Source: Escherichia coli (GTDB lineage Bacteria > Pseudomonadota > Gammaproteobacteria > Enterobacterales > Enterobacteriaceae). From it: a DNA stretch of 64,000 nt. The DNA lies in NCBI RefSeq assembly GCF_013315695.1, contig NZ_CP054353.1. One strand, 5' to 3'. The notes under the pieces are model-generated. The model was not told where the DNA came from. It saw only the letters and a program-made list of their open reading frames with translations, and made no database searches. Made by a program: the position numbers and the translations under genes. This document shows, piece after piece, positions 13,016 through 57,519 of this stretch (positions within the stretch are counted from its first letter, which is position 1; every line of letters starts with the position of its first letter).

Positions 13016-14109
13016 TCCTGAGCCAGAGAAAGCAGTATTTGCGTAACGCGCCCTGCGGAAAGCGGGGTGCTGTGAGTAAATACTGCTTGTTTATGTAGCC
13101 AGTCGATAAAATGTCTGCTGGTTGCGAAAGAGAGCATTACAGCTTTGCTGTTATTTCCGCCCGTTAATGCACATACCATTTTACGATTTTTGCCCTGAAC
13201 CCAGAGTTGCCACTGATTTTTCCACCAGCCGTGATAAGTTTTTCCCTGAAAACGCCAGGGCGTATTATCGGTATAGTCAGCTATTTCCTCTTCAATAAAC
13301 CAAATTTCACCTTGCTGTTGGCGAAACAGTTCTGCCCAGGCCGTAATAATCGCACCTCTTAAAAAACACTCGTGTGAAATTACATGTGTTTTTACTGTAG
13401 GGAATAAAATATTCAGTACTCTAAAATGCCCGTGCGCTGTGATAACCGGACGCAGAATAACACCTTTAGCATTGCGTTTGAGCGCTGCGCTGCCATACTG
13501 AATTTCATCAAACTGACTGCGGCGTAGAAATTGTGCTTCGCGCATATCAACGCGTTGTACAATATTACTCTCGTGTAACTCTGGTTCTGCATTTCCTCTG
13601 TATCGATAATACAGACTTTCTCCAGCCTGATGCTGCGTGTAATTAGTAGAAAGATGAAGAATATTACCGCGAAGAGCATCAAAACTGATTAAAACATACA
13701 GTTTCTGCCCGCCGCTGGCTCCCTGAAATGGCACCAGAAGAGCAACCGTTTCGATTATTTCAGGAGGCGTTATTTCTTTCTGATATTGTTTAGGTGTCCA
13801 GACTTTTTTGCAGTTACGACATTGAATGCGTTGCGACCCCTGTGGATTGTGGCCATAACAAATCGTCTTTGTGCCATAACATACCGGGCAGAAATGACCT
13901 TTCTCAGTTGCAAAAGTAGATAAGTGAACTGACAACCAGTCACGAAATTGCTGTTCGTCAAACAACGGCGGGTAACTTCCACATGCCCGACAGTGCAGTG
14001 CCGGATAACCCAGTCGATAGTCTGGCCAGCTGTAATCTGTCGAAGTTGGCTGCCCTAAATTACGGCAACCAAACGACTTGCAGGCATTAATCGTAAACAG
14101 AGTCGACAT
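12979..14109 (-). CDS. Hypothetical cysteine-rich (multi zinc-ribbon) protein, accessory; function unknown
   Basis: 376-aa ORF in visibly AT-richer DNA; N-terminal 100 aa carry C-x4-C, C-x2-C, C-x2-C and C-x2-C pairs including CPVC...QRIQCRNCKKVW, which resembles the IS1 InsA / IS1595-type transposase zinc ribbon; no recognisable catalytic motif; 3' end overlaps metL by 37 bp. Confidence 0.55.
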   Translation of the reverse strand: MSTLFTINACKSFGCRNLGQPTSTDYSWPDYRLGYPALHCRACGSYPPLFDEQQFRDWLSVHLSTFATEKGHFCPVCYGTKTICYGHNPQGSQRIQCRNCKKVWTPKQYQKEITPPEIIETVALLVPFQGASGGQKLYVLISFDALRGNILHLSTNYTQHQAGESLYYRYRGNAEPELHESNIVQRVDMREAQFLRRSQFDEIQYGSAALKRNAKGVILRPVITAHGHFRVLNILFPTVKTHVISHECFLRGAIITAWAELFRQQQGEIWFIEEEIADYTDNTPWRFQGKTYHGWWKNQWQLWVQGKNRKMVCALTGGNNSKAVMLSFATSRHFIDWLHKQAVFTHSTPLSAGRVTQILLSLAQDYNNCARRLISD

Positions 14110-14241: not shown

Positions 14242-15795
14242 ATGAAAATTAAAATGCTTGCTGCGGGTATCGCATTAACACTGCCGTTTTGGGCTTGCGC
14301 CAAAGATGTCACCATCATTTATACCAACGACCTCCATGCACATGTAGAGCCTTATAAAGTGCCGTGGATTGCTGACGGTAAACGAGATATTGGCGGCTGG
14401 GCAAATATCACTACGCTTGTTAAACAAGAAAAAGCTAAAAACAAAGCGACCTGGTTTTTTGATGCGGGTGACTATTTTACCGGGCCGTATATCAGCAGCC
14501 TGACTAAAGGCAAGGCGATTATCGATATTATGAATACCATGCCATTCGATGCGGTCACTATAGGTAATCATGAATTTGATCACGGCTGGGACAATACGTT
14601 ATTACAGTTGAGTCAGGCAAAATTCCCGATTGTGCAGGGTAATGTTTTTTATCAGAACAGCAGTAAATCATTCTGGGATAAGCCCTATACCATCATTGAA
14701 AAAGACGGCGTGAAAATTGGCGTGATTGGTTTGCACGGTGTATTTGCCTTTAATGATACGGTATCTGCGGCAACGCGAGTGGGTATTGAGGCGCGTGATG
14801 AAATTAAATGGCTACAACGTTATATCGATGAACTCAAAGGCAAGGTTGATTTGACCGTTGCGCTGATTCACGAAGGTGTTCCGGCCCGCCAGTCCAGTAT
14901 GGGGGGCACAGATGTGCGCCGCGCACTGGATAAAGATATTCAGACGGCAAGTCAGGTGAAAGGGCTGGATATTTTGATCACCGGGCATGCACATGTGGGT
15001 ACGCCGGAACCGATTAAAGTCGGCAATACGCTCATCCTCTCCACTGACAGCGGTGGGATTGATGTCGGTAAACTGGTACTGGACTACAAAGAGAAGCCGC
15101 ATGATTTTACGGTGAAAAACTTCGAGCTTAAAACCATTTACGCCGACGAGTGGAAGCCCGATCCGCAAACAAAACAGGTGATCGACGGCTGGAATAAAAA
15201 GCTTGATGAAGTGGTGCAACAAACGGTCGCGCAATCGCCGGTTGAATTAAAACGTGCCTATGGTGAATCGGCTTCCCTCGGGAACCTGGCGGCTGATGCT
15301 TTACTGGTAGCGGCGGGTAAAAACACCCAATTGGCGTTAACCAACTCTGGCGGCATTCGCAATGAGATCCCCGCAGGGGCGATTACGATGGGCGGCGTCA
15401 TCAGTACCTTCCCGTTCCCCAACGAACTGGTGACGATGGAACTCACGGGTAAACAATTACGCAGTTTGATGGAACACGGCGCAAGTTTAAGTAATGGCGT
15501 TTTACAGGTATCGAAAGGCCTGGAAATGAAGTACGACAGCAGCAAACCGGTTGGTCAGCGGGTAATCACACTGACTCTGAATGGCAAACCCATTGAAGAT
15601 GCGACAGTTTATTCTATTGCCACCCAGAGTTTCCTTGCTGATGGTGGAGATGGTTTTACCGCCTTTACCGAAGGGAAAGCGCGTAACACAACGGGCGGTT
15701 ATTACGTTTATCACGCCGTGGTTGATTACTTCAAAGCGGGTAACACCATCACGGATGAACAGATCAACGGTATGCGCGTGAAAGATATCAAGTAA
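14242..15795 (+). CDS. Secreted bifunctional metallophosphatase / 5'-nucleotidase (UshA family)
   Basis: ORF 14236..15795; first ATG at 14242 with GGAAGGG RBS 6 nt upstream; signal peptide [20 protein letters not shown]; motifs [27 protein letters not shown] and a C-terminal nucleotide-binding domain ([14 protein letters not shown]). Confidence 0.8.
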
Positions 15796-19623: not shown

Positions 19624-19668
19624 TACCGGCGTATAGTGTCCACAGGAAAACTACACACTGGATCTCTC

Positions 19669-20574
19669 ATGTCTGCCGCAGGAAAGAGCAACCCACTGGC
19701 AATCAGTGGCCTGGTTGTGCTCACACTTATCTGGAGTTATAGCTGGATTTTCATGAAGCAAGTCACCAGCTACATCGGTGCCTTCGACTTTACCGCCTTA
19801 CGCTGCATTTTCGGCGCTCTCGTTTTATTCATCGTCCTTTTATTACGTGGTCGCGGAATGCGCCCGACACCGTTTAAATACACCTTAGCCATTGCCCTGT
19901 TACAAACCTGCGGGATGGTCGGCCTGGCGCAGTGGGCGCTGGTCAGCGGAGGAGCGGGGAAGGTGGCAATCCTGAGCTATACCATGCCGTTCTGGGTGGT
20001 GATTTTCGCCGCGTTGTTTCTCGGTGAACGCCTGCGACGTGGGCAATATTTCGCGATTCTGATTGCCGCTTTCGGCTTATTTTTGGTGTTGCAGCCGTGG
20101 CAACTCGATTTCTCTTCGATGAAAAGCGCCATGCTGGCAATCCTCTCCGGTGTGAGTTGGGGGGCGAGCGCGATTGTTGCTAAACGTCTGTATGCCCGCC
20201 ATCCGCGCGTGGATTTATTGTCGCTAACATCCTGGCAGATGCTGTATGCGGCGCTGGTGATGAGCGTGGTCGCTTTACTGGTGCCGCAACGTGAAATTGA
20301 CTGGCAACCCACCGTGTTCTGGGCGCTGGCCTACAGTGCGATTCTGGCGACAGCGCTGGCGTGGAGCTTATGGTTGTTTGTATTGAAAAACTTGCCTGCC
20401 AGTATTGCCAGCTTAAGCACACTGGCCGTTCCCGTTTGCGGCGTACTCTTTTCCTGGTGGCTGCTCGGTGAGAATCCGGGGGCCGTTGAAGGTAGCGGTA
20501 TTGTGCTGATTGTGCTGGCACTGGCGCTGGTGAGCCGTAAGAAAAAAGAAGCCGTCAGTGTAAAAAGGATCTGA
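19669..20574 (+). CDS. yijE: EamA/DMT-family inner membrane transporter YijE
   Basis: ORF 19636..20574 (GTG at 19636); polytopic membrane protein; start placed at ATG 19669 ([11 protein letters not shown]) giving 301 aa; start uncertain. Confidence 0.8.
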
Positions 20575-20600
20575 ATTTTTTCTTCATGTGGGGAGATCGC

Positions 20601-21218
20601 TTATTTAGCAAAATACCGATAGTGCCCCACCATCCGCCAGCTAAACAGTACATCTTCTTCCTGCGCGCCTGCGCCAATGTTATGTATCACCAGCGGCGTA
20701 CCGTCGCGGGCGAAGCCATCTGACACCACCCCAATATGTGCCAGCCCGTTATCTAATCGCCAGGAGACAATATCGCCCGATTGATAGTCACTGGGGTTCT
20801 TGCTGGTGGGGCGTGTTTTATCGTGGCGGGTAAACCAGGTTTCCAGATTAGGCACCCGACGGTGATCGATGTTGCTGTCCGGGCGCTTTAACTGCCATTT
20901 TTGCGGGTACGCAGCAAAATTCTTCGCCATATCTTCGTGCACCAGTTTCTGCAAATCGACCTTCTGGCTGCGCAATGCACGGATCACCACATCGGAACAT
21001 ACGCCGCGTTCTTGCGGGACATCACCGCCAGGATAGGTAAGCTGCACATACGCCGGATCGTAAAATAGCGTGCTGCCGATTTGCTGTCTGGCACCGTCTG
21101 CGATGGCAAGGTTGGTGTTGGCCTGGATCTGTACCACGGTTGGTGGAACGGCGGGAGATTTTAAGGAGTGGCTGGTAAATGCCGTTAGCAGGCTGACCAG
21201 CACCAGTGAAGCTTTCAT
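20601..21218 (-). CDS. yijF: DUF1287-family periplasmic protein YijF
   Basis: 205-aa ORF with signal peptide MKASLVLVSLLTAFTSHS; recognised as YijF. Confidence 0.8.
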   Translation of the reverse strand: MKASLVLVSLLTAFTSHSLKSPAVPPTVVQIQANTNLAIADGARQQIGSTLFYDPAYVQLTYPGGDVPQERGVCSDVVIRALRSQKVDLQKLVHEDMAKNFAAYPQKWQLKRPDSNIDHRRVPNLETWFTRHDKTRPTSKNPSDYQSGDIVSWRLDNGLAHIGVVSDGFARDGTPLVIHNIGAGAQEEDVLFSWRMVGHYRYFAK

Positions 21219-21367
21219 CTGGTTCGTCCGTGAAAATAAGAGTCACAGATTCGACCTTCCGGGCTAACGATTGTTCTGTAGAGAAAATGTCCAGAAGCGG
21301 ATAAAAAATTCCTGAACAACGTGGGAGTTTCAGACGGGTGATAACGTATAAAAAGTGCTCGAACAGT

Positions 21368-21548
21368 CCCCTCTCCCCTTTGGGGAGAGGGTTAGGGTGA
21401 GGGGAACAGGCCAACTCCGGGGCGAATATTTACCCTCACCCCGACCCTCTCCCTGAAAGGGCGAGGGGGAAAAACATGCCCGCAGTGACGAGTGAGCCAC
21501 TTTGCCTGCACTCTCAAACTCCCGGACAAGCCGGGAGTTTGGAGTAGG
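21368..21548. repeat. Cluster of GC-rich palindromic intergenic repeats (boxC/RIP-like)
   Basis: Perfect hairpin ccctctcccc-ttt-ggggagaggg (21369..21391); gggtgagggg (21395..21404) pairing with ccctcacccc (21433..21442); third ccctctccc copy (21445..21453); perfect palindrome aaactcccgg-acaag-ccgggagttt (21519..21543). Confidence 0.6.
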
Positions 21549-22652
21549 TTATTCCCACTCTTGCAGGAAACGCTGACCATACTGGTCGGCTACCAGCAGT
21601 GCGGCGTAAACCTGATCTGGCGTCGCGCCGCCAGGCATGTTGTGGATGGTTTCACCTTCTGCACATGCCGCTTCTGCCACAATTCGCATTTTCGCCGGGA
21701 CATCTTCTTTAATATCCAGTTGAGCGAGAGTTATTGGCAAACCTACCGCATGGCTAAGCGCAGCTACGGTTTCGATTTCCTCCACCGGCGCGTTTTCCAG
21801 CACCAGCTGCGTCAGCGTACCGAATGCTACTTTTTCACCATGATAATAGTGATGCGCGTCCGGGATAGCGGTCAGGCCGTTATGTACCGCGTGTGCCGCC
21901 GCCAGCCCGCCGCTTTCAAAACCAACACCGCTCAAATAGGTGTTCGCTTCAATCACGCGTTCCAGCGCCGGAGTCACTACATGCTGTTCGGCGGCAAGCA
22001 TCGCTTTTTCGCCTTCTTCCAGCAGAGTGTTGTAGCACAGTTCTGCCAGTGCCAGCGCCGCCTGGGTGCACTTGCCGCCCGCCATGGTGGTCGCGCCGCT
22101 ACGAGAGCAAGCACGCGCTTCAAACCAGGTTGCCAGCGCATCGCCGATACCCGCCGCTAACAGACGTGCAGGTGCGCCAGCGACGATTTTGGTGTCGACA
22201 ATGACCATATTCGGGTTATTTGGCAACATCAGATAGCGGTCAAATTCACCCTCATCGGTGTAGATAACAGACAATGCGCTGCACGGTGCGTCGGTAGAGG
22301 CGATAGTCGGTGCGATCGCTACCGGAACACCCATGAAATGTGCCAGTGCTTTGGCAGTATCGAGAGTTTTTCCGCCACCGATACCGAGAATTGCGCCACA
22401 CTGCGCAGTTTCCGCGATGCCACGCAGACGGTCGATCTCATTTTGCGAACATTCACCGCCAAACGGCGCAATTTCTACTACCAGTCCAGCATCTTTAAAG
22501 CTTTTCTCGACAGTGGATTGAGCAAAACCTAAAACAAATTTGTCACCCACCACTAACCAGCGTTCTGCCAGCGGCTTCAGGTATTCGCCCAGACGATTAA
22601 TCACATCAGCGCCCTGGATGTATTTACCCGGTGATTGAATAATGCGGTCCAT
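21549..22652 (-). CDS. gldA: Glycerol dehydrogenase (iron-containing ADH family)
   Basis: ORF 21549..22691; start trimmed to [24 protein letters not shown] giving 367 aa. Confidence 0.9.
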
Positions 22653-22662
22653 AATTGCTCCT

Positions 22663-23325
22663 TTAGAGATGAGTAGTGCCAAATGCGGCATTCCAGTCGT
22701 GTTCGAACTTCTCTATAGCTGACTCTACCGCAGGGGTGTTGAGCATTTGTTGCGCTACATCTAAGGGCAGGGTGATGGATTCACATCCTGCCAGTAAACA
22801 GTCCAGCGCCTGACGCGGCGTTTTAAAGCTGGCTGCCAGCACCATGCTTTCTGGCGCGTGCATTTCCAACAGCGCTTGCAGCTCCTGAACCGTACGAATG
22901 CCGTCACCGCCCTGGGCGTCGACGCGGTTAACATACGGAGCAACATATTTTGCCCCTGCCAGCGCGGCTAATAACCCTTGTGCGGCGCTATATACAGCGG
23001 TGCCAAGTGTAGTAATACCCTCTTTTTTCAGCATTTTAATGGCGGCAAGACCTTCGGAAGTTACCGGGATTTTCACCACAATGCCCGGAATGGCGTCGCG
23101 CAGGCGCTTCGCTTCTTCCACCATACCCTGCGCGTCACGACTCATGGTCTGAGCAAACAAAATACCCTCATCACCAATCGCTTTTTGCAGACGCGGCAGC
23201 ACTTCCCATATGGACTCCTTGCTGGCAGCGATAATGCTCGGGTTAGTTGTCACCCCGGCAATCGGGAATATGCGTGCCAGACGTTCGACTTCTGCGACGT
23301 TAGCGGTGTCCAGATACAGTTCCAT
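22663..23325 (-). CDS. fsaB: Fructose-6-phosphate aldolase 2 (transaldolase-like)
   Basis: 220-aa [36 protein letters not shown]; TalC/FsaB family. Confidence 0.9.
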
Positions 23326-23336
23326 GATGTTTCCTT

Positions 23337-25838
23337 TTACAGTTCCAGTTCATGTTGCAGCAGGCTGGCGATAGCGTCGGCAGAGGCGGCGTTAACCAGC
23401 GCGTTACGGAATTCTTCGTGCATGATGCGACGAGCGAGGCGCGAGAAAATGCGCATGTGCTGATCGCCCGCAGCATGTTTGTTCAGGGTTAACATAATGA
23501 TGAATTGCGCTTCATCATCGCCCCAGCGCACCGGCGCTGCCAGACGCGCCACGCTGATGGTGGATTGCTCAATGTGTTCTGATTTGCTGTGGGGAATGGC
23601 AAAACTAAAGCCCAGACCGGTAGAGAAAACGGCCTCGCGCGCCCACAAGTCGGCTTCCAGTTTACGCGGATAGCGACAGCGGCCCGCCAGCAGCAGGTTA
23701 TCGGTCATGCCTTTGAGCACTTCTTCTTTGCTGCGCCAGTCGCTTTCCAGTGTGATGCACTCGGCGGTGACCAGCGGTGCGTCTTGTTGGGTCATGCGGA
23801 ATTGCGCCAGCAGGTGTTCCACTTCCAGCGAAGTACGGCAGGCCATTGCCTGGTTGAGCAACTTGCGGCACTCACGGCTATCAAGTTGCGCCATCCGCGC
23901 TTTCGCCGCCGGAATTGATGGTGCGCTCATGCTGAGTTCATCCAGCCCTAAGCCGACCAGCAACGGCAGCACGGAACCTTTCGCTCCTAGTTCACCGCAC
24001 AGACCAATCCATTTGCCCTGGCGATGCACCGCCTGCACGGCGTAATCGAGCGCCCGCAGGAATGCCGGATTCAGGCTGTTATAGTGACGAGTAACCTTAG
24101 CGTTATCGCGATCCACTGCCAGCAGATATTGCGTCAGGTCATTACTACCAATACTAAAGAAATCAATCTCTTCACAGCATTGATCGATGATGAACATCAC
24201 CGACGGCACTTCCAGCATGATGCCGAGCTGGATTTTCTCATCAAACGGAATGTGTTCGTTACGCAGTTGCTGTTTTGCTTCCGCCAGTTTTTCTTTCACC
24301 CATAAGATCTCTTCCATTGAGGAGATCATCGGGATCATGATTTTCAGGCTGCCGTGAGCGGAGGCACGGAGAATCGACCGTAGTTGTGTGGTAAATAACG
24401 ACGCGTACTCTTCATAAATACGCACGGCGCGATAACCGAGGAACGGGTTTGCCTCTGCGGGAATGTTCAGATAATCAACGGGTTTGTCACCGCCAATATC
24501 CATAGTGCGCACAATAATGCTGCGTCCGTTGGCGGACTCCAGCGCCTGACAAAAAATGTTGTACAGCTCGCTTTCGCCCGGTGCACTGGTGCGATCCATA
24601 TAGAGCATTTCAGTGCGGAATAAACCAACGCCTTCCGCACCATTGCCGAATGCGGCCTGCGCTTCCACGGAGTGAGCGATGTTAGCGGCAATTTCAATGC
24701 GGATACCGTCAGCGGTACGGGCTTGTTGGGTCAGCCAGACACGCTGTTGCTCACGCAGGGCGTCCTGTACGCGGGCTTCTTGCTGATAATAACGGGCCAC
24801 GGCTTCCCCTGGCTCAACCACAATCGCCCCTGCGTTGCCGTCGATATAAATCGTTTGATGCTGCCACGGAGTAAGGGCATCAATATCCACACCTACCAGC
24901 GTCGGAATGTTGAACGAACGGGCAAGGATCACCGTATGTGAGGTGGTGCCGCCACTTTTCAGTAATAGACCTTTGAGGTGACTTTTATCCAGTTCGAGGA
25001 ACTGGCTGGGGGTCAGTTCATCAGCCATACAAATGGCGGGCTGCGTCAGTTTGCCCGGTGCCGGGAAGCGTTGCTCACCGTAGATTTGCTGGAGTAACTG
25101 GAAGCAGACGTCGCGTACGTCCAGAGCACGTTCTTGCAGGTAGCTGCTGCTGGAACGGGCGAACTCTTCGCAAAAGTGATTCGCACTGGCAACAATCGCT
25201 TCGGCGCAGCTTAATCCGGCGCTGACACCTGCCAGTAAATGTTCGCGCAGGGAAGTATCGCCAGCCAGGGATCGGTGCGCTTCCAGAATCGCGCTGGTAG
25301 CACCGTCGCTATCCAGCAGACGAAACTCTATGTTTTTCAGTACCAGCGTCAGACCGTTTTCCAGTGCGGATTGTTCGGCGTCAACGCCTTTGGCTGCGGG
25401 AAGATTACCCAGCGCATTGAGATCTAAAGAAGAGATCGGCGTCAGAATGCCGCCTGCGCTACCGCTGCACACGGTGCGGGCGCGGATAATTTGCGGATTC
25501 AGATTGGTCAGTGAAACCGGCAGTGGTTCCAGTTCGTCAGATTTAACTTCCGCCAGCGGCGCATCGCAGTGGGGGAATTCATCGCGCAGCCATTGGCTTA
25601 AACGCTGGTGCGCTTCCTGTTCGTCGGCCCCGGAAATCAGTAACTGGCAGTTATCGCCCGCCAGCGTGTCGGTGCCAATCAGCGCAAGGGCGCTTTTGGC
25701 GTTGCCCTTGCGGTCAGTGCGCAGGTTATGCCACTCAATTTGTGATGAAAAAGTATTACACAGCGTTTCAACGTGGCTTGCCGGACGCGCATGGACGCCG
25801 TTAGGTAGCTCACAAATAAATTCCACAATCAGGGCCAT
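23337..25838 (-). CDS. ptsA: Multiphosphoryl transfer protein (PTS EI-HPr-EIIA fusion, fructose-like)
   Basis: 833-aa ORF with HPr-like N-terminus, enzyme I PEP-utilising core and C-terminal EIIA-like domain. Confidence 0.88.
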
Positions 25839-26146
25839 TGCCTTTCTCCCGGTACGGTTTTCTGTTTACAGGATAAGAGCGCACGGTAACGGCCTGCCAT
25901 GTGACAAATCTGCCAAAAGCTGGACAAATGTAATGTAACCGTCAATTTGCGACGCGTCTCACAAGACGCCGTTTTGCGGCATGCTTCCGGATTATCGCAA
26001 GTTATGAGGCGGATCGCATTTTTGTACTGATATTACAAAAGTCCAGTAAATGGCCTTTTTATCCACTGTTTGCTCCGCCTGCGATTGCCTATTGTTTCTT
26101 CCATCAAAAATATGGACATGGGCTTTCGCAAGCCCGGGAGCAGCTT

Positions 26147-26992
26147 ATGAATGAGTTGGTGCAGATCCTGAAAAATACCCGTCAGCATTTAATGACGGGC
26201 GTTTCACACATGATTCCCTTCGTGGTATCGGGCGGTATTTTGCTGGCGGTTTCCGTCATGTTGTATGGCAAAGGCGCAGTGCCGGATGCCGTAGCCGATC
26301 CGAATCTGAAAAAACTGTTTGATATCGGCGTTGCAGGTTTGACGCTGATGGTGCCTTTCCTCGCCGCTTACATCGGTTATTCCATTGCAGAACGTTCTGC
26401 GCTGGCTCCATGCGCTATCGGTGCTTGGGTTGGTAACAGCTTTGGCGCGGGCTTCTTTGGTGCACTGATCGCCGGGATTATCGGCGGCATTGTGGTGCAT
26501 TACCTGAAGAAAATTCCGGTGCATAAAGTTCTGCGCTCGGTGATGCCAATCTTCATCATTCCTATCGTCGGCACACTGATTACCGCTGGCGTCATGATGT
26601 GGGGGCTGGCGACGCTGATTGGTCGTAAAAATTTCTCCGCAGAAGAGCGCGAAACCGGCAAGGCGGCACTGGTGATGGGCTGTGTTGGCGTTACTGAAGG
26701 GGCGATTCCTTTCGCCGCTGCCGATCCGCTGCGTGTTATTCCTTCCATCATGGTCGGTTCAGTTTGTGGTGCAGTAACTGCGGCGCTGGTCGGTGCGCAG
26801 TGCTATGCAGGCTGGGGTGGTCTGATTGTGCTGCCGGTGGTTGAAGGCAAGCTGGGTTATATCGCAGCAGTGGCTGTCGGAGCAGTGGTGACGGCTGTTT
26901 GTGTGAACGTGCTGAAAAGTCTGGCGCGTAAAAATGGGTCTTCGACTGATGAAAAAGAAGACGACCTGGATTTGGATTTTGAAATTAATTAA
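26147..26992 (+). CDS. frwC: PTS fructose-like EIIC component (shorter than recalled K-12 form)
   Basis: 281-aa polytopic membrane ORF MNELVQILKNTRQHLMTGVSHMIPFVVSGG; FrwC is about 359 aa in K-12 as I recall, so this copy may carry an in-frame internal deletion. Confidence 0.8.
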   Translation: MNELVQILKNTRQHLMTGVSHMIPFVVSGGILLAVSVMLYGKGAVPDAVADPNLKKLFDIGVAGLTLMVPFLAAYIGYSIAERSALAPCAIGAWVGNSFGAGFFGALIAGIIGGIVVHYLKKIPVHKVLRSVMPIFIIPIVGTLITAGVMMWGLATLIGRKNFSAEERETGKAALVMGCVGVTEGAIPFAAADPLRVIPSIMVGSVCGAVTAALVGAQCYAGWGGLIVLPVVEGKLGYIAAVAVGAVVTAVCVNVLKSLARKNGSSTDEKEDDLDLDFEIN

Positions 26993-27006
26993 TTGAGGAA
27001 CGAGCC

Positions 27007-27327
27007 ATGACGAAAATTATTGCAGTAACCGCGTGTCCATCTGGTGTTGCCCATACCTATATGGCGGCAGAGGCGCTGGAAAGTGCCGCGAAAGCGAAAG
27101 GCTGGGAAGTGAAAGTAGAAACCCAGGGCTCGATTGGTCTGGAAAATGAACTGACTGCGGAAGACGTGGCGAGCGCCGATATGGTGATTCTGACCAAAGA
27201 TATCGGCATCAAGTTTGAAGAGCGTTTTGCTGGCAAGACCATCGTGCGCGTCAACATCAGCGACGCGGTAAAACGCGCTGATGCCATTATGAGCAAAATT
27301 GAAGCTCACCTGGCACAAACCGCTTAA
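27007..27327 (+). CDS. frwB: PTS fructose-like EIIB component
   Basis: 106-aa ORF MTKIIAVTACPSGVAHTYMAAEALE with the EIIB active-site Cys motif. Confidence 0.9.
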   Translation: MTKIIAVTACPSGVAHTYMAAEALESAAKAKGWEVKVETQGSIGLENELTAEDVASADMVILTKDIGIKFEERFAGKTIVRVNISDAVKRADAIMSKIEAHLAQTA

Positions 27328-27335
27328 GTTCTTAT

Positions 27336-27360
27336 CCCGCCCGTAAGGGCGGGTTCGCTT
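27336..27360 (+). other. Stem-loop between frwB and pflD (possible intra-operon attenuator or RNA processing element)
   Basis: cccgccc-gtaa-gggcggg hairpin followed by ttcgcttt. Confidence 0.4.
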
Positions 27361-27377
27361 TCCCACAGGAGTTCCTC

Positions 27378-29675
27378 ATGACGAATCGTATCTCTCGCCT
27401 CAAAACTGCACTGTTTGCCAATACCCGTGAAATCTCGCTGGAGCGGGCGCTGCTTTATACCGCCAGCCATCGGCAAACCGAAGGCGAACCGGTGATATTG
27501 CGCCGGGCGAAAGCAACAGCGTATATCCTTGAACATGTTGAAATTTCGATTCGTGATGAAGAACTGATTGCCGGTAACCGTACGGTGAAACCGCGCGCCG
27601 GAATTATGTCGCCGGAAATGGACCCTTACTGGCTGCTGAAAGAGCTGGATCAATTCCCGACGCGTCCGCAGGACCGCTTTGCTATCAGCGAAGAAGATAA
27701 ACGTATCTACCGCGAAGAGTTGTTCCCGTACTGGGAAAAACGTTCGATGAAAGATTTCATTAACGGGCAGATGACGGATGAAGTAAAAGCCGCGACCAGC
27801 ACGCAGATTTTCAGCATCAACCAGACGGATAAAGGCCAGGGGCACATTATTATTGATTACCCGCGCCTGCTGAATCACGGGCTGGGTGAGCTGGTAGCGC
27901 AAATGCAGCAACATTGTCAGCAACAGCCGGAGAATCACTTTTATCAGGCCGCGTTGTTACTGCTGGAAGCCTCGCAGAAACACATTTTGCGTTACGCCGA
28001 ACTGGCGGAAACGATGGCGGCAAACTGCACAGATGCCCAGCGTCGCAAAGAGCTGCTGACTATTGCGGAGATCTCCCGCCATAACGCGCAACATAAGCCG
28101 CAGACGTTCTGGCAGGCGTGCCAGTTATTCTGGTACATGAACATCATTCTGCAATACGAATCCAACGCCAGTTCGCTGTCTTTAGGGCGCTTCGACCAGT
28201 ATATGTTGCCGTTCTATCAGGTATCATTAACCCAGGGCGAAGATCCGGCGTTCCTGAAAGAACTGCTCGAATCTTTATGGGTGAAATGCAACGACATCGT
28301 GCTGTTGCGCTCCACCAGTAGCGCGCGTTATTTCGCCGGTTTCCCGACCGGCTATACCGCACTGCTCGGCGGGTTAACTGAGAACGGACGTAGCGCGGTG
28401 AACGTACTTTCGTTCCTCTGTCTCGACGCCTATCAAAGTGTGCAATTACCGCAACCGAACCTGGGGGTGCGCACTAACGCCTTGATCGACACGCCGTTCC
28501 TGATGAAAACCGCCGAAACCATTCGCCTTGGCACCGGTATTCCGCAAATCTTCAACGATGAAGTGGTGGTGCCAGCGTTCCTCAACCGTGGCGTTTCGCT
28601 GGAAGATGCACGCGACTATTCCGTAGTGGGCTGTGTGGAATTATCTATTCCCGGCAGAACCTACGGCTTGCATGACATCGCGATGTTTAATCTGCTGAAA
28701 GTGATGGAAATCTGCCTGCATGAAAATGAAGGCAATGCTGCGCTGACTTATGAAGGTTTACTGGAGCAGATCCGCGCCAAGATCAGCCACTACATCACCC
28801 TGATGGTTGAGGGCAGCAATATTTGCGATATCGGTCACCGTGACTGGGCACCTGTACCGCTGCTCTCATCGTTTATCAGCGATTGTCTGGAAAAAGGCCG
28901 CGATATTACCGATGGCGGTGCGCGTTATAACTTCTCCGGCGTACAGGGGATCGGTATCGCCAACCTGAGCGATTCTCTCCATGCGTTGAAAGGTATGGTT
29001 TTTGAGCAACAGCGTTTAAGTTTTGACGAATTGCTGTCGGTATTAAAAGCCAACTTCGCAACGCCAGAAGGCGAAAAAGTCCGTGCTCGCTTAATTAACC
29101 GCTTCGAGAAATACGGTAACGATATCGACGAGGTGGATAACATCAGCGCCGAACTGTTACGCCACTACTGCAAAGAAGTGGAAAAATACCAGAACCCGCG
29201 CGGCGGCTACTTCACGCCGGGATCGTATACCGTTTCTGCTCACGTCCCGTTGGGATCGGTGGTTGGCGCGACGCCAGACGGTCGTTTTGCCGGGGAACAA
29301 CTGGCAGACGGTGGCTTGTCTCCCATGCTGGGCCAGGACGCACAAGGACCAACGGCGGTACTGAAATCAGTCAGCAAGCTCGATAACACGCTGCTTTCTA
29401 ACGGTACGTTGCTGAACGTGAAATTCACTCCGGCGACCCTGGAAGGTGAAGCGGGATTACGCAAACTGGCTGACTTCTTACGGGCATTTACCCAGCTTAA
29501 GTTACAACACATTCAGTTTAACGTGGTGAACGCCGACACGTTGCGGGAAGCGCAACAGCGCCCACAAGATTATGCCGGGCTGGTGGTGCGCGTTGCCGGA
29601 TACAGCGCCTTCTTTGTCGAACTGTCGAAGGAGATCCAGGATGACATCATCCGCCGGACAGCGCATCAGCTGTAA
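27378..29675 (+). CDS. pflD: Formate acetyltransferase 2 (glycyl-radical enzyme)
   Basis: 765-aa ORF of the PFL-like glycyl radical family, with the C-terminal glycyl-radical region (VVRVAGYSAFF). Confidence 0.9.
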   Translation: MTNRISRLKTALFANTREISLERALLYTASHRQTEGEPVILRRAKATAYILEHVEISIRDEELIAGNRTVKPRAGIMSPEMDPYWLLKELDQFPTRPQDRFAISEEDKRIYREELFPYWEKRSMKDFINGQMTDEVKAATSTQIFSINQTDKGQGHIIIDYPRLLNHGLGELVAQMQQHCQQQPENHFYQAALLLLEASQKHILRYAELAETMAANCTDAQRRKELLTIAEISRHNAQHKPQTFWQACQLFWYMNIILQYESNASSLSLGRFDQYMLPFYQVSLTQGEDPAFLKELLESLWVKCNDIVLLRSTSSARYFAGFPTGYTALLGGLTENGRSAVNVLSFLCLDAYQSVQLPQPNLGVRTNALIDTPFLMKTAETIRLGTGIPQIFNDEVVVPAFLNRGVSLEDARDYSVVGCVELSIPGRTYGLHDIAMFNLLKVMEICLHENEGNAALTYEGLLEQIRAKISHYITLMVEGSNICDIGHRDWAPVPLLSSFISDCLEKGRDITDGGARYNFSGVQGIGIANLSDSLHALKGMVFEQQRLSFDELLSVLKANFATPEGEKVRARLINRFEKYGNDIDEVDNISAELLRHYCKEVEKYQNPRGGYFTPGSYTVSAHVPLGSVVGATPDGRFAGEQLADGGLSPMLGQDAQGPTAVLKSVSKLDNTLLSNGTLLNVKFTPATLEGEAGLRKLADFLRAFTQLKLQHIQFNVVNADTLREAQQRPQDYAGLVVRVAGYSAFFVELSKEIQDDIIRRTAHQL

Positions 29676-30519
29676 CGTTGTGGAAACGCGCCGCGATGAT
29701 GTGGCGCGCATTTTCAACATTCAGCGTTATTCACTGAATGACGGCGAGGGCATTCGTACGGTGGTCTTTTTTAAAGGCTGTCCGCATCTTTGCCCGTGGT
29801 GTGCTAATCCGGAGTCGATCTCCGGCAAAATCCAGACGGTACGCAGAGAGGCGAAATGTCTGCACTGTGCGAAATGTTTGCGTGATGCGGATGAATGCCC
29901 GTCCGGGGCGTTTGAACGGATTGGTCGCGATATCAGCCTTGACGCGCTGGAACGGGAAGTGATGAAAGATGACATTTTCTTTCGCACGTCCGGCGGCGGC
30001 GTCACGCTTTCTGGCGGCGAAGTGTTAATGCAGGCGGAGTTTGCTACCCGTTTTTTACAGCGGCTTCGGTTGTGGGGTGTGTCATGCGCCATCGAAACTG
30101 CCGGAGACGCGCCGACCAGCAAGTTGTTACCGCTGGCGAAATTGTGCGATGAAGTGTTGTTCGATTTAAAAATTATGGACGCGACTCAGGCGCGGGATGT
30201 GGTGAAGATGAACCTGCCACGCGTGCTGGAGAATCTGCGTTTGCTGATTAGTGAGGGCGTCAACGTGATCCCGCGTTTACCGCTGATCCCTGGTTTCACG
30301 CTCAGCCGGGAGAATATGCAGCAGGCGCTGGACGTGCTGATCCCGCTGAATATCAGGCAGATCCATCTGTTACCGTTTCATCAGTACGGCGAACCGAAAT
30401 ACCGCCTGCTGGGGAAAACATGGTCGATGAAAGAGGTGTCTGCGCCGTCGTCAGCCGATGTGACAACGATGCGCGAAATGGCAGAACGGGCCGGATTTCA
30501 GGTTACCGTGGGAGGTTAA
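29641..30519 (+). CDS. pflC: Pyruvate formate-lyase 2 activating enzyme (radical SAM)
   Basis: ORF 29572..30519; start trimmed to MTSSAGQRISCNV giving 292 aa; CPHLCPWC radical-SAM cluster motif; overlaps pflD 3' end by 35 bp. Confidence 0.88.
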   Translation: MTSSAGQRISCNVVETRRDDVARIFNIQRYSLNDGEGIRTVVFFKGCPHLCPWCANPESISGKIQTVRREAKCLHCAKCLRDADECPSGAFERIGRDISLDALEREVMKDDIFFRTSGGGVTLSGGEVLMQAEFATRFLQRLRLWGVSCAIETAGDAPTSKLLPLAKLCDEVLFDLKIMDATQARDVVKMNLPRVLENLRLLISEGVNVIPRLPLIPGFTLSRENMQQALDVLIPLNIRQIHLLPFHQYGEPKYRLLGKTWSMKEVSAPSSADVTTMREMAERAGFQVTVGG

Positions 30520-30520
30520 A

Positions 30521-30862
30521 ATGGCATACCTGGTGGCAGTAACCGCCTGCGTAAGCGGCGTGGCGCATACTTATATGGCGGCGGAACGGCTGGAAAAGTT
30601 GTGCCTGTTAGAGAAGTGGGGCGTCAGCATTGAAACTCAGGGCGCGCTGGGAACGGAGAATCGTTTAGCGGACGAGGATATCCGTCGGGCGGATGTTGCG
30701 CTGTTAATTACGGATATCGAGCTTGCCGGTGCTGAGCGATTTGAACATTGCCGCTATGTGCAATGCAGCATCTACGCTTTCCTGCGTGAGCCGCAGCGGG
30801 TGATGAGCGCGGTGCGCAAAGTGCTTTCTGCGCCGCAGCAAACCCATCTTATTCTGGAGTAG
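30521..30862 (+). CDS. frwD: PTS fructose-like EIIB component 2
   Basis: 113-aa ORF MAYLVAVTACVSGVAHTYMAAERLE; EIIB family. Confidence 0.88.
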   Translation: MAYLVAVTACVSGVAHTYMAAERLEKLCLLEKWGVSIETQGALGTENRLADEDIRRADVALLITDIELAGAERFEHCRYVQCSIYAFLREPQRVMSAVRKVLSAPQQTHLILE

Positions 30863-31700
30863 TCGGTTTTTCTGTCAGTTGGCTGTGGTACTGCCGACGA
30901 TATTCCGACGGCGAGCGTTCGGTATTTTTACGAAACAGACGGCAGAAGTAGTTGCTGTCGACAAAGCCGCAGGCGTGCGCCACTTCTTTTACCTTCAGGT
31001 CATAGCCTTTCAATAACGTCTTAGCGTGCTCCAGTCGCGTGTGATTCAGGTATTCGTTAAAACCAATGGCCCCCGTTTTTTGAAACAGGTGCGAGAGGTA
31101 ATTTGGCGAAATATAGAATGCCTGTGCGACAGATTCGCGGGTAAGCGCGGAGGCATAGCGTTCGTCGATATAATCGCGAATAGCTTCGAATAGAGCCTGG
31201 CTACGTGAGGCGGTCTGGATTTGGCTGCCGAGCAAATCGCGGCAGTGGCTAAGCAGGCTGGCGACGATAAGCCTTGCCGTTTGCTGCTCCTGCGGCTGCA
31301 TTTGCATTTCATTGAGCGTTTGTAGCAGAAAAGAACCAATGCGCGGGCCGCGTCGGGCGACGTGTTGCTTCGCCAGATTTTGATATTGTTTGCCATCCCA
31401 TTGCACGACGCTGAAGCCGAGTTGCTGTTTGCCAAACAGCACGCTAAAGGTAGTGGCGGGGGCTTGCCATTGTGGAAAATTCCAGCCACCAGCGGCAACG
31501 TACAGCACATCGCCGGGAACTAACGTTGCTCCAGCGCCGGTATCAACAAACTCACCTTCCAGCACAATTTCCAGACGTGGAAAATCGACCTGATACGCAA
31601 GATCGGGCACCGGGCCGTTACTGCTGGCAAAGTAAATCTGGCGCAGGGACAGCGGGCCGTTGATCAGGCGGGAGAGCAGATAGCTGACGTCGTGATACAT
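30849..31700 (-). CDS. yijO: AraC-family transcriptional regulator YijO
   Basis: 283-aa ORF with cupin-like N-domain and C-terminal AraC HTH (NYFCRLFRKNTERSPSEYR). Confidence 0.85.
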   Translation of the reverse strand: MYHDVSYLLSRLINGPLSLRQIYFASSNGPVPDLAYQVDFPRLEIVLEGEFVDTGAGATLVPGDVLYVAAGGWNFPQWQAPATTFSVLFGKQQLGFSVVQWDGKQYQNLAKQHVARRGPRIGSFLLQTLNEMQMQPQEQQTARLIVASLLSHCRDLLGSQIQTASRSQALFEAIRDYIDERYASALTRESVAQAFYISPNYLSHLFQKTGAIGFNEYLNHTRLEHAKTLLKGYDLKVKEVAHACGFVDSNYFCRLFRKNTERSPSEYRRQYHSQLTEKPTTPE

Positions 31701-31848
31701 GTTATTCCCTTAGGTATGTAGACGGGAAAACAGTAACTGGCATTATTAAAAAAGGCCACCTGAAAAGTGTGGCCTGAGGGGAGTTCGATGTAAACATTGC
31801 GGCAGTATCGCATCCGGCAAATAGCGCCAGACGCGATACAAAGGTCAT

Positions 31849-33582
31849 TTACTGATTACCTACCTGGTCGCCATATGGCAGCGTGTCGTAATCGATCAGC
31901 GCGTTTTTCTTGTACGGGTTACCAATCCAGCGGGTAGTTTCTTTGAACTGCGGATTCACCACTGAACGGGTTGGATCGTAACCGTCGTAAGATAAGCCCG
32001 CCAAATCTGACCAGGTGTGGATCAGTTCCGCAAGGCTGTATTTACGATCAACATCCTGTGAGAAATCACGCGGATGAGTCGCTTGCCATTTTTCCGACGT
32101 CCACAGCAGGAACGGAATGGTGTACATGTGGCGCGTCGGGTTGTCCTCATTACGCCCCTGGGTTTTATGCGGCGGCGTGTCGTAAACCTCTTCACCGTGG
32201 TCAGAGAAGTAAACCAGGAATCCGTTCGGGTCTGCCGCTTTAAAGTCTTTAATCAGGCTGGCAACCACATGATCGTTATACAGGTTAGCGTTGTCATAAT
32301 CGTTATATGACTCCAGCTCTTCTGCGTTTAATCCCGGTGGGACATGATCGGTATTGCCATCAAACTTGCCCTGATTTTCCGGGTAGCGGTATTTGTATTT
32401 GATATGCGTACCCAGCAGATGAACGATGATCAGTTTCTTCGGCGCAGGGTCCTTCAGCACTTCCTGGAACGGCTTCAGCACGTTAGTGTCGTATTCACGC
32501 GCACTCTGCGTACGTTGCTGGTTCATGTAGTACTGCTTGTCGGTCTGGCGCGAAAATACCGTCAGCATCGTATTGCGGGCGGTCATTGTCTGCTGGTTGG
32601 TGATCCAGAAGGTTTTATAACCCGCCTGTTTCATCATGTTCATCAGCGACGGCTGCGTCAGATACAGATCCGGGTTCTTTTCATTGGCAAAGGTCAGCGC
32701 CTGTTGCAGGATTTCAATGGTGTACGGACGAGACGTAACCACGTTATTAAACACGGTCAGATTCGGATCGGTTTTATGCAGCGCATCCAGCTCCGGCGTG
32801 GTTTCACGCGGATAACCGTACAGACTCATGCGTCCACGCTGGGTCGATTCGCCAATTACCAGCACTAAGGTGCGCGGTTCGTTACCCGATTCATCTTTGA
32901 AATTAGCCAGCGGCGGCAAGGCATTATTTTCATTCAGTAGCTTTGTTAGCGAGTTTAGTTGCTGACGATACTGATAATAGCCGGTCAGGAATTGCCACGG
33001 TGCGGCAGGCTCCATACGCGATGCCAGGTTATCCAACGTTTTCTCAAACGGCTTGTTCTTGATAAACGTATTCATGGCGATCGGATGCAGAATCAAGCCA
33101 TAAAGCAGGGCAAAAGAGACAACATAACGCCACGGCTTTGGAATATAGACCGGGCGCAGGCGTGTCCACAGCAGAACTGCCACCGCCGTATAGGCCAGCG
33201 CGATAAGCACAATTTTCAGGCTGAAATACTGGCTTAAATACTCGCTGGCTTCGTTGGTGTTGGTTTCGAACATCACAAACAGAACGCTCTGCGAGAACTC
33301 CTGACCGTAGATGACGTAATAGCACAGCGCCGCCAGAGAGGCCGCCCATAGCACCACGCCGATCACTGCGGCAATAATTTTAATCCGCTTCGGAAAGAGG
33401 AATACCGGGATCAACCACAGCGAACTGAATAACAGCGAGTCGCGAATGCCGTTAGTGCCACTATAACCACTGATGTAAATAATGGCCTGTAGCAGAGTAG
33501 AGAAAAACCAAAAGTAGAGCAGTGCCCAACCCAGGGCTTTCCAGCTAAAAAGGGGTTTAGCCTGGACTTCTGTGGAATGCAT
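31849..33582 (-). CDS. eptC: Phosphoethanolamine transferase EptC (sulfatase family)
   Basis: ORF 31849..33627; start trimmed to MHSTEVQAKPLFSWKALGW giving 577 aa; N-terminal TM helices plus sulfatase domain. Confidence 0.88.
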   Translation of the reverse strand: MHSTEVQAKPLFSWKALGWALLYFWFFSTLLQAIIYISGYSGTNGIRDSLLFSSLWLIPVFLFPKRIKIIAAVIGVVLWAASLAALCYYVIYGQEFSQSVLFVMFETNTNEASEYLSQYFSLKIVLIALAYTAVAVLLWTRLRPVYIPKPWRYVVSFALLYGLILHPIAMNTFIKNKPFEKTLDNLASRMEPAAPWQFLTGYYQYRQQLNSLTKLLNENNALPPLANFKDESGNEPRTLVLVIGESTQRGRMSLYGYPRETTPELDALHKTDPNLTVFNNVVTSRPYTIEILQQALTFANEKNPDLYLTQPSLMNMMKQAGYKTFWITNQQTMTARNTMLTVFSRQTDKQYYMNQQRTQSAREYDTNVLKPFQEVLKDPAPKKLIIVHLLGTHIKYKYRYPENQGKFDGNTDHVPPGLNAEELESYNDYDNANLYNDHVVASLIKDFKAADPNGFLVYFSDHGEEVYDTPPHKTQGRNEDNPTRHMYTIPFLLWTSEKWQATHPRDFSQDVDRKYSLAELIHTWSDLAGLSYDGYDPTRSVVNPQFKETTRWIGNPYKKNALIDYDTLPYGDQVGNQ

Positions 33583-33766
33583 AGTAAGAACCTGTCTTGA
33601 AAAAAATATCGCCGAATGTAACGACAATTCCTTAAGGATATCTGAAGGGATATCCAGAATTTGAATAAAATGCAGACAGAAATATATTGAAAACGAGGGT
33701 GTTAGAACAGAAGTATTTCAGAAAACCCTCGCGCAAAAGCACGAGGGTTTGCAGGAGGGGGGAAGA

Positions 33767-36418
33767 TTAGCCGGTATTACGCATACCTGCCGCAATCCCG
33801 GCAATAGTAACCATTAACGCTTGCTCGACGCGAGGATCCGGTTCCTGGCCTTCTTTTTCTGCCTGGCGGGAGCGGTGCAGCAACTCGGCCTGCAATACGT
33901 TCAGCGGGTCGGTGTAAATATTCCGTAGCTGAATAGACTCTGCAATCCACGGCAGATCGGCCATCAAATGGGAATCGTTGGCAATCGCCAGCACCACTTT
34001 GATGTCTTCTTCTTGCAGATTGCGTAACTCTTTACCTAACGGCCACAGTGCTTTGTCTACCAGACGTTGATCATAGTATTCCGCCAGCCACAGGTCTGCT
34101 TTGGCGAAGACCATCTCCAGCATGCCGAGACGCGTCGAGAAGAATGGCCAATCGCGGCACATGGCTTCCAGTTCGCTCTGCTTGCCATCTTCGACCACTT
34201 TTTGCAGCGCCGTACCTGCACCCAGCCAGGCGGGGAGCATCAGGCGGTTTTGTGTCCAGGCAAAAATCCACGGAATGGCGCGCAGTGACTCGACGCCGCC
34301 GGTTGGGCGACGTTTCGCCGGACGTGAACCCAACGGCAGTTTGCCCAGTTCCTGTTCCGGCGTAGCGGAGCGGAAGTAAGGCACAAAATCTTTGTTTTCA
34401 CGTACGTAGCCACGGTAGAGATCGCAGGAGATGACTGACAGTTCATCCATAATGCGACGCCAGCTCTCTTTCGGCTCAGGCGGTGGCAGCAGGTTGGCTT
34501 CCAGAATCGCCCCGGTGTACAGCGACAGGCTGCTGACGGTGATTTCTGGCAGACCATATTTAAAGCGGATCATCTCGCCCTGTTCAGTCACGCGCAGGCC
34601 ACCTTTCAGGCTTCCTGGCGGTTGTGACAGCAGCGCCGCATGAGCAGGTGCGCCGCCGCGACCAATGGAACCGCCGCGACCGTGGAACAACGTCAGCTCA
34701 ATACCCGCTTTTTCGCAGGTTTTGATTAATGCATCCTGTGCCTGATATTGCGCCCAGGAAGCTGCCATCACGCCCGCATCTTTTGCTGAGTCGGAATAGC
34801 CAATCATCACCATCTGTTTGCCCTGAATCAGGCCGCGATACCAGTCGATATTCAGCAGCTGGGTCATGACATCGTTGGCGTTGTTCAGGTCATCGAGGGT
34901 TTCAAACAGCGGAGCAACCGGCATCGCAAACCCGATACCCGCTTCTTTCAGCAGCAGGTGGACAGCCAGCACGTCGGACGGCGTTTTCGCCATCGAGATC
35001 ACGTAGGCGGCAATGGAGCCTTGCGGCGCTTCGGCAATCACCTGGCAGGTATCGAGCACTTCGCGCGTTTCGGCGCTTGGTTGCCAGTTGCGCGGCAGAA
35101 GCGGACGTTTGGAGTTCAGTTCGCGGATCAGGAACGCCTGTTTGTCGGCCTCTGACCAGCTTTCGTAGTCGCCGATACCGAGGTAGCGGGTCAGCTCGCC
35201 CAGCGCTTCGGTATGGCGGGTGCTCTCCTGACGGATATCAATACGGACCAGCGGTACGCCGAAACATTTCACGCGGCGCAGGGTGTCGAGCAGATCGCCG
35301 TTGGCGATAATACCCATGCCACACGCCTGAAGTGACTGGTAGCAAGCGTAGAGCGGTTCCCACAGTTCTTCGTTTTGTGTCAGCAGGCCTTCTGGTTTTG
35401 GCAGTTCTTCGCCTTTCAGGCGCGCTTCCAGCCATGCCTGTGTCGCCATCAGGCGAGAACGCAGGTTTTTCATCAGATAGCGATACGGTTCTGCGGCACC
35501 TTCTTCGCCAACCAGCGCCAGCAGTTCAGGGGTCGCTTCAACCATCGACAGTTCAGAAACCAGCACCTGAATATCTTTCAGGAACAGATCGGTGGCTTTC
35601 CAGCGACTGAGCAGCAGGACGTGGCGGGTGATATCGGCAGTGACGTTCGGGTTGCCGTCGCGGTCACCGCCCATCCACGAGGTAAAACGGACCGGAACAA
35701 ATTCGACGGGCAGTTTGTAGCCGAGATTCTCTTCCAGTTGTTCGTTCAGTTCGCGCAGGTAATTCGGTACGCCTTGCCACAGGCTGTTTTCTACTACGGC
35801 AAAGCCCCATTTGGCTTCATCTACCGGGCTTGGACGCAGCTTACGGATTTCATCGGTATGCCATGACTGGGCGATCAACTGGCGCAGGCGGCGCATCAGC
35901 TGGTTGTGTTCGTAGTCAGCGATATCTTTGTTATCGAGCTGTTTTAAGCAGGCGTTCACTTCCACCATTTTGTGGATCAGTGTACGACGGGTAATTTCGG
36001 TTGGGTGAGCCGTGAGGACCAGTTCCAGCGACAGCGATTCCACTGCTTTTTTGATGGTGTCTTCGCTCAGTTCCGGCTGGTTTTTCAGTTTACGCAGGGT
36101 GCGGGCGATCACTTCCGGGTTGCTGGCAGCTTCGCCTTTCGGCGAAATGCTGTGGTATTGCTCGGCGGTGTTGGCCAGGTTCAGGAATTGACTAAACGCA
36201 CGCGCAACGGGCAGCAGCTCGTCGTTCGACAAATTTTGTAAGGTGGTGAGCAACTCCTGGCGGTTAGCATCATTGCCAGCGCGTGAAGATTTGGACAACT
36301 TACGGATAGTTTCTACGCGTTCAAGAATGTGTTCTCCTAACGCATCCTTGATGGTTTCTCCCAGCACTTTGCCGAGCATACTGACATTACTACGCAATGC
36401 GGAATATTGTTCGTTCAT
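33767..36418 (-). CDS. ppc: Phosphoenolpyruvate carboxylase
   Basis: 883-aa [33 protein letters not shown] ... C-terminal QNTG; PEPC family. Confidence 0.95.
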
Positions 36419-41732: not shown

Positions 41733-42947
41733 ATGAAAATTATTGCTGCAGATGTTTTTGTTACTTGCCCAGGACGTAATTTCGTTACGCTTAAAATAAC
41801 CACTGCAAGCGGACTTTGTGGATTGGGAGATGCCACATTAAATGGTCGCGAATTGTCGGTCGCTTCTTATCTGAAAGATCATCTTTGTCCACAATTAATT
41901 GGCCGCGATGCCAGCCGTATCGAAGATATCTGGCAATTCTTTTATAAAGGTGCTTACTGGCGACGTGGCCCCGTCACGATGTCGGCCATTTCTGCCATTG
42001 ATATGGCGTTGTGGGATATCAAAGCCAAAGCGGCAAATATGCCATTGTATCAACTGCTTGGTGGTGCTTCTCGTGAAGGCGTGATGGTTTATTGCCACAC
42101 CACCGGGCGCACGATTGATGAAGTCCTTGAAGACTATGCAAAGCACCAGCAGATGGGCTTTAAGGCGATTCGTGTGCAGTGCGGTGTACCGGGTATGCAA
42201 ACCACTTATGGCCTGGCGAAGGGCAAAGGACTGGCGTATGAACCGGCAACCAAAGGCCTGTGGCCGGAAGAGCAGTTGTGGTCTTCAGAAAAGTATCTCG
42301 ATTTTACACCGAAGTTATTTGAAGCGGTGCGTAATAAGTTCGGTTTTAACGAACATCTGTTGCATGACATGCACCATCGCCTGACTCCTATCGAAGCGGC
42401 GCGCTTTGGGAAGAGCATTGAGGATTACCGCCTGTTCTGGATGGAAGATCCGACGCCTGCTGAGAACCAGGAATGTTTTCGTCTGATTCGCCAGCATACT
42501 GTGACGCCGATTGCGGTCGGTGAAGTGTTTAACAGTATCTGGGACTGCAAGCAGTTAATCGAAGAGCAGCTGATTGACTATATTCGCACGACGATTACCC
42601 ATGCAGGCGGCATAACCGGGATGCGACGGATTGCCGATTTTGCATCGCTTTATCAGGTACGTACCGGTTCGCATGGCCCTTCAGATTTATCGCCTGTTTG
42701 TCATGCGGCGGCGCTGCATTTTGACCTCTGGGTGCCAAACTTTGGCGTTCAGGAGTACATGGGCTATTCCGAACAAATGCTTGAAGTCTTCCCGCATAGC
42801 TGGCGCTTCGATGAAGGTTATATGCACCCAGGCGATGAACCGGGGCTGGGTATTTCTTTCGATGAGAAACTGGCGGCGAAATATCCGTATGACCCGGCGT
42901 ATCTCCCCGTCGCACGACTGGAAGATGGCACATTGTGGAACTGGTAA
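41733..42947 (+). CDS. Enolase-superfamily sugar-acid dehydratase, RspA/ManD-like (D-mannonate/altronate dehydratase family), accessory
   Basis: ORF 41673..42947; start at ATG 41733 with AGGAG RBS 9 nt upstream; 404 aa [24 protein letters not shown]... closely resembles RspA as I recall it. Confidence 0.8.

Positions 42948-54615: not shown

Positions 54616-57519
<2,904 letters not shown>

Follow-up and report, generated by a model that had tools for sequence, protein, structure and literature searches.

Does the frwC gene of this Escherichia coli genome carry an internal deletion, and if so, what would be left of the membrane transporter that it encodes? The locus lies in a stretch of 64,000 nt (contig NZ_CP054353.1), which was analysed as a whole and is called the window here. 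The original prediction had described an uninterrupted reading frame of 281 codons, flanked by ptsA and frwB, that seemed too short for a K-12 FrwC of about 359 residues. We found this ATG-initiated, uninterrupted reading frame at exactly 26147..26992 on the plus strand, and its product is listed in RefSeq as WP_021569748.1, 'PTS EIIC component'. The length given for K-12 was correct as well. K-12 MG1655 frwC is annotated with 1080 bp, corresponding to 359 aa, and the reading frame in the window is short by exactly 78 codons, or 234 bp.

Identity of the gene and anatomy of the deletion

By profile score, synteny and near-identity outside the gap, the gene in the window is identified as frwC. 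The protein scored 538.9 bits against the NCBIfam FrwC equivalog model NF007787 (cut-off 426) and 194.4 against TIGR01427 (cut-off 157.55). The 359 positions of NF007787 were covered in two stretches, the first spanning positions 1-155, rather than in one collinear match over the full length. Pfam assigned no family to either the short or the intact FrwC. K-12 FrwC (b3949; NF007787 / PRK10478, 'PTS fructose transporter subunit EIIC'), a member of the fructose family of PTS permeases, is encoded at the same locus and in the same gene order. An alignment with this protein had been proposed as a check, and it revealed a gap instead of full collinearity: residues 1-154 and 231-359 of K-12 FrwC were aligned by BLASTP. 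Outside the gap, the only difference was V149 in the window protein compared to I149 in K-12, and the C-terminal piece was identical at 129 of 129 positions. Residues 153-230 of the K-12 protein (78 aa), which include the motif FDMGGPxNK, have no counterpart in the window protein.

At the nucleotide level, the gene was compared with K-12 and with the two closest intact alleles, from isolate AF3 (NZ_OZ547117.1), which carries the nearest one, and from MS 21-1. The alignments showed just one gap, of 234 nt, which can be placed at gene positions 456-689 or just as well at 464-697, and removing either block from the AF3 allele reproduced the gene in the window exactly. The common prefix of 463 nt and the common suffix of 391 nt add up to 854 nt, which is the 846 nt of the short gene plus 8 nt. 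The prediction had also suggested a check for short direct repeats at the deletion site, and both borders were indeed marked by the 8-bp sequence GGGGCTGG in intact alleles of the same lineage. This octamer occurred exactly twice in the AF3 and MS 21-1 gene, at nt 456 and nt 690, 234 nt apart; the pair was established by a direct string search and was absent from the output of a general repeat search. The sole remaining copy in the window is located at 26602..26609 on the plus strand (gene nt 456), and the next 234 bp of the intact alleles are missing. In K-12 the 5′ site reads GGGCTTGG, and the perfect in-frame repeat was found only on the allele background of the window's lineage.

The junction was seamless, with no filler DNA, mobile element or additional rearrangement, and around the gene there were 0 mismatches between AF3 and the window at 4501 shared positions, the 234 bp aside. 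Because the two repeats are 234 nt (3 x 78) apart, the reading frame was kept and no new residues were introduced, so that MMWGL is followed directly by ATLIGRK in the protein. The proposed in-frame internal deletion of roughly 234 bp is thus confirmed as a real deletion of one 78-codon block, by a direct sequence comparison in which chance is not an issue.

These features point to a simple origin of the allele. In an ancestor with an AF3-type allele, 234 bp would have been lost between the two copies of GGGGCTGG, leaving one copy behind, and the resulting footprint is that of replication slippage or microhomology-mediated illegitimate recombination, either of which may have been at work. With the frame kept, the downstream genes frwB-pflD-pflC-frwD would still be translated normally. 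Deletions between short direct repeats are classical in E. coli lacI, where they are ascribed to replication slippage or RecA-independent illegitimate recombination. As in the lacI deletions, a perfect short direct repeat bounds the block in the parental allele and one copy is retained, and compared with these classical cases nothing in frwC is unusual. About 32 repeated 8-mers were counted in the frwC gene; since such repeats are common there, the GGGGCTGG pair explains the location of the break and not its cause. The hairpin potential of the deleted DNA was not above that of shuffled sequences (z = 0.39), and the sole inverted repeat found, 8 nt with a 165-nt spacer, was unremarkable. The mutational mechanism is a textbook one, and the finding is real but ordinary.

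Distribution of the allele among strains

The frwC locus was present in 5405 of 5426 complete E. coli genomes and the 234-bp segment in 5396 of them, which makes frwC a near-universal and usually intact gene and the 234-bp lesion a rare one. The interval 25900-27400 of the window measures 1501 bp, compared to 1735 bp, matched in two BLAST pieces, in nearly all complete genomes. The 1501-bp form in a single piece was seen in only one of the 5426, that of MSB1_4I (NZ_LR898874.1), a hospital-associated rectal-swab isolate in which ISEcp1 is present. The closest relatives, with 99.8-99.9% identity, were intact; AF3, OZ546925, OZ546911 and MS 21-1 are the nearest ones known to carry the intact allele. 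The exact 281-aa protein was also found in 607 contig-index blocks, five of them with contigs longer than 1 Mb, and a gut-metagenome scaffold (L005) matched 6846 bp of the window at 100% identity. A literature search on the 281-aa allele or strain MSB1_4I found nothing relevant.

MSB1_4I was identical to the window over 19659-34659. Elsewhere it differed by three SNPs outside the rRNA genes and by an ISEcp1 insertion in menA, so the two are different strains that have the deletion in common. AF3, with the intact allele, differed from the window at about nine non-rRNA SNPs over the 64 kb. These comparisons bear directly on whether the 234-bp gap could be an assembly or sequencing artefact, for which the probability is next to nil. 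At least 280 public contigs encode the same protein, which has several NCBI accessions, and they come from independent isolate and metagenome assemblies and one finished hybrid genome. In addition, there is no long repeat that could have collapsed, just 8 bp, and two distinct strains share the deletion. An assembly artefact is effectively refuted by the independent assemblies.

It is equally hard to conceive that the 359-aa form arose by an insertion into a short form that was either ancestral or acquired from another species. Such a history is at odds with the presence of the segment in all distant homologs that were aligned, in addition to nearly all of the E. coli genomes, and with flanks that are identical to those of the intact-allele sister strain AF3. 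An ancestral or foreign short form is excluded by the distribution of the segment together with the identical flanks. The pattern instead fits a deletion that arose in a single, fairly recent event and was inherited clonally in one sublineage, with AF3-like strains as the intact sister group. A 90%-identity cluster built around the short protein held only one member sequence, which fits a young allele. Judging from the genomes compared, the frwC deletion is clone-specific.

Several differences outside the frw locus were observed in the same comparisons. Within window positions 1-1221, menA (about 295-1221, minus strand) is intact and 100% identical to AF3. In MSB1_4I, menA is annotated as truncated, with its C-terminus missing and an ISEcp1-family transposase alongside (record 5016438-5018505), and window positions 1-623 have no match in that genome. 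From these alignments, the ISEcp1 insertion is private to MSB1_4I, and the window comes from a different strain of the same clone. At 52483-52503, four substitutions and two single-base indels distinguish the window from both AF3 and MSB1_4I. This cluster lies in the intergenic region between murI and the 16S gene of an rrn operon, just upstream of a promoter-like sequence (TTGACT...TATTAT), and more scattered differences were found inside the 16S and 23S genes (52901, 55785-55842 and 56096). The rrn differences look like gene conversion between rrn operons or a difference in assembly.

Two gene pairs elsewhere in the window were also recorded. A D-mannonate dehydratase gene, manD (41733-42947), and an MFS transporter gene (43014-44297), both on the plus strand, lie between argH and oxyR, which we take to be adjacent in K-12, and the pair would then be a small accessory insert. 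Between metL and metF, a hypothetical protein of 377 aa is encoded on the minus strand (12979-14109), and the 3′ ends of its gene and metL overlap by 37 bp. It adjoins a gene on the plus strand (14242-15795) for a secreted-looking bifunctional metallophosphatase/5′-nucleotidase. This pair is presumably absent at the metL-metF position in K-12.

The lost segment and its predicted effect on transport

The prediction had held that the deletion removes part of the EIIC membrane domain and probably inactivates the transporter. To judge what was lost, the conservation of the segment was determined in an alignment of 42 stand-alone fructose-type EIICs together with the intact allele. Three of the 11 invariant family residues (D191, G193 and K198) and five of the 14 near-invariant columns (P157, G185, G194, P195 and N197) fall inside the deleted residues 153-230. 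Over this span the gap fraction was 0.002, and conservation was a little higher than in the remainder of the protein. No homolog without the region was found among the 42. A wider search gave 2376 relatives at E <= 0.001 among 1.8 billion representative proteins, and for the near-full-length ones the alignment with the intact protein ran through the deleted region without a break. The part of the membrane domain that is missing includes FDMGGPxNK, the most conserved motif of the family, which the invariant and near-invariant residues listed above together make up. The motif GVTEGAIPF is kept, and the invariant residues E262 and P266 in the numbering of the intact protein are E184 and P188 in the window protein.

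The AF2 model of intact FrwC (pLDDT 91.2) shows helices at 133-175, 177-190, 195-209 and 213-236 that span the deleted part. Hydropathy likewise indicated the loss of two hydrophobic blocks, at 171-196 and at 198-237. In a Foldseek search, the intact model matched the IIC domain of E. coli PtsG (8qsr_A; E 4.5e-5, TMq 0.68, probability 1.00), a IIC domain from V. cholerae (9lgt_A; TMq 0.66) and MalT (6bvg_A; TMq 0.62). Sequence and profile searches of the PDB returned no EIIC, and the four weak matches were attributed to chance. The glucose-superfamily EIICs of known structure (PtsG IIC, 8qsr; V. cholerae, 9lgt; B. cereus MalT, 5iws/6bvg) are elevator-type dimers, and the intact FrwC model has the same fold at 13-16% identity, with no match at the sequence level. 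The order of elements is also the same as in the solved EIICs: scaffold helices, a long TM helix with an amphipathic helix, hairpin 1, a TM helix, hairpin 2 with the G-[IV]-T-E motif, and two TM helices.

In PtsG, the scaffold domain consists of TM1-5. Beyond a proline hinge, TM5 continues as an amphipathic helix that connects this domain with the transport domain, and HP1 and then TM6 come next (PMC11393339). The sugar site of PtsG is formed by HP1a, HP1b, HP2b, TM6 and the TM7-alpha3 loop (PMC11393339). Our mapping of FrwC onto PtsG is based on fold similarity and helix order, not on a residue-level structural alignment, and by this mapping the deletion would remove the amphipathic extension including P157, HP1a, HP1b and most of the next TM helix. 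HP1a and HP1b would be the two arms of a re-entrant hairpin with the invariant FDMGGPxNK at its tip. The elements that the allele in the window would thus lack, namely the linker helix, HP1 and the greater part of the TM helix after it, have a share in the sugar site of PtsG. Instead of a complete transport domain (HP1, TM6, HP2, TM7 and TM8, named by the order of elements), the protein has lost helices 177-190 and 195-209 and most of 213-236. By element order, the protein appears to have lost one passage through the membrane and about half of its sugar-binding site. The RKNFSAEERETGK loop, which normally lies in the cytoplasm, should then end up on the wrong side of the membrane together with all that follows it. 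With about half of the sugar site and one crossing removed, the protein most likely no longer works as a transporter. Conservation and structure modelling together make it very likely that transport function is lost, and the gene in the window, which has neither the full-length match nor the motif FDMGGPxNK, is best regarded as a deletion allele, and a probable pseudogene, of a known gene.

Could the short protein nevertheless be functional, either as an altered transporter or with a new task, such as dimerising as a scaffold domain with paralogous EIICs, and have been selected for it? In favour of this, the deletion is in frame and leaves the N-terminal scaffold helices and the HP2 motif GVTEGAIPF in place, the protein passes the FrwC equivalog cut-off, and the allele is widespread within its clone. 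Furthermore, the identical MSB1_4I gene is annotated in RefSeq as 'PTS EIIC component' with no pseudogene flag from PGAP, which we also counted against a loss of function. The AF2 model of the short allele was confident outside the junction and dropped below a pLDDT of 50 only at residues 153-162. AF2 is insensitive to deletions of this kind and a poor judge of them, and the model was given little weight. The preserved frame is expected by chance for one deletion in three. The three invariant residues and hairpin HP1 are gone, the region is present in all 42 aligned homologs and in the near-full-length representatives listed, and the removal of one membrane-spanning helix should invert or strand the downstream half. 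A residual or new function of the 281-aa protein is unlikely, and that of a selected functional protein is a clearly improbable reading of the allele.

Operon context, possible selection and probable dispensability

The order of genes around the deletion is gldA-fsaB-ptsA, then divergently frwC-frwB-pflD-pflC-frwD. The gene ptsA (ptsP in PGAP; 23337..25838, minus strand) is intact and encodes an EI/HPr/EIIA-like protein of 833 aa, the K-12 length. This multidomain protein of the Frw system has the Pfam domains PTS-HPr, PEP-utilisers and PTS_EIIA_2. The divergent intergenic (promoter) region between ptsA and frwC (25839..26146) is unchanged compared to AF3. Downstream of frwC, and on the same plus strand, frwB (27007..27327) encodes an intact PTS fructose-like EIIB of 106 aa with the K-12 accession WP_000161265.1, and pflD (27378..29675) encodes an intact glycyl-radical formate C-acetyltransferase homolog of 765 aa. 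These are followed by pflC (29641..30519, coordinates converted from MSB1_4I), an intact gene for a glycyl-radical activating enzyme with 879 bp as in K-12, and by frwD (30521..30862), which encodes an intact second EIIB with the K-12 accession WP_000323846.1. All of gldA, fsaB, ptsA, frwB, pflD, pflC and frwD have their K-12 lengths, and FrwB and FrwD are identical to the K-12 proteins. The mechanically called gldA reading frame (21549-22691, minus strand) starts 13 codons upstream of the annotated start (380 compared to 367 aa), which is no difference from K-12. The expectation that the deletion preserves the reading of the operon was borne out: with the downstream genes at K-12 lengths and the frame kept, there is no polar effect and no further decay of the operon.

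The substrate of the Frw system is listed merely as 'fructose-like' (PMC10305011). Deletion of frwC in Salmonella caused no loss of fitness in LB or in competition in the mouse gut (PMC11974825), and overexpression of frwBC gave a mild and variable rise in aminoglycoside susceptibility (PMC12412646). The literature search found no phenotype beyond this overexpression effect. The allele is probably tolerated, as the Frw system would be dispensable under most conditions. Many isolates have kept the allele and show no further decay of the operon, which is in keeping with a neutral change in a young clone but is no proof of it.

An alternative is that the loss of FrwC was positively selected, for example if the permease is an entry route for aminoglycosides, a toxin or a phage. 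The carriers do include hospital-associated isolates such as MSB1_4I, with its rectal-swab origin and ISEcp1. However, the reported aminoglycoside effect is weak and was obtained with overexpression only, and the segment is missing from just a handful of the 5405 complete genomes with the locus, so that frwC is no recurrent target. The deletion is found on a single haplotype, with no sign of parallel events, and positive selection has only a very small probability. A broader form has a smaller probability still. In this form the deletion was selected in a hospital-associated clone because FrwC lets such agents across the inner membrane, or else the scaffold half that is left pairs dominantly with paralogous EIICs of the fructose type. 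The selective reading is speculative, and nothing here favours it over neutrality. We consider it highly probable that the gene is a natural frwC deletion allele that arose via the GGGGCTGG repeats, that its product is most likely a non-functional transporter, and that the allele is clonal and probably tolerated.

A separate observation concerns strain T28R from a dog (NZ_CP142708.1). Its similarity to the window ends at query position 539, at approximately frwC codon 97, and the next annotated feature after the break is an AraC-family regulator (yijO). This suggests an independent and larger deletion that would have taken out frwB-pflD-pflC-frwD as well as the 3′ part of frwC, and it would be further evidence that the frw operon is dispensable.

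The importance of the frwC allele beyond bookkeeping is little, and it would be an ordinary loss-of-function allele. It is at the same time a clear-cut natural case of an in-frame deletion flanked by microhomology, in which an elevator-type EIIC has lost its core and the operon can still be read. Annotation pipelines name the product 'PTS EIIC component' and do not flag the probable loss of function. The deletion can be used as a lineage marker of the sub-clone that includes MSB1_4I and the strain of the window, and it is one more indication that E. coli can do without the cryptic Frw PTS. If the Frw substrate is found, this clone would be a natural knockout in which it could be tested.
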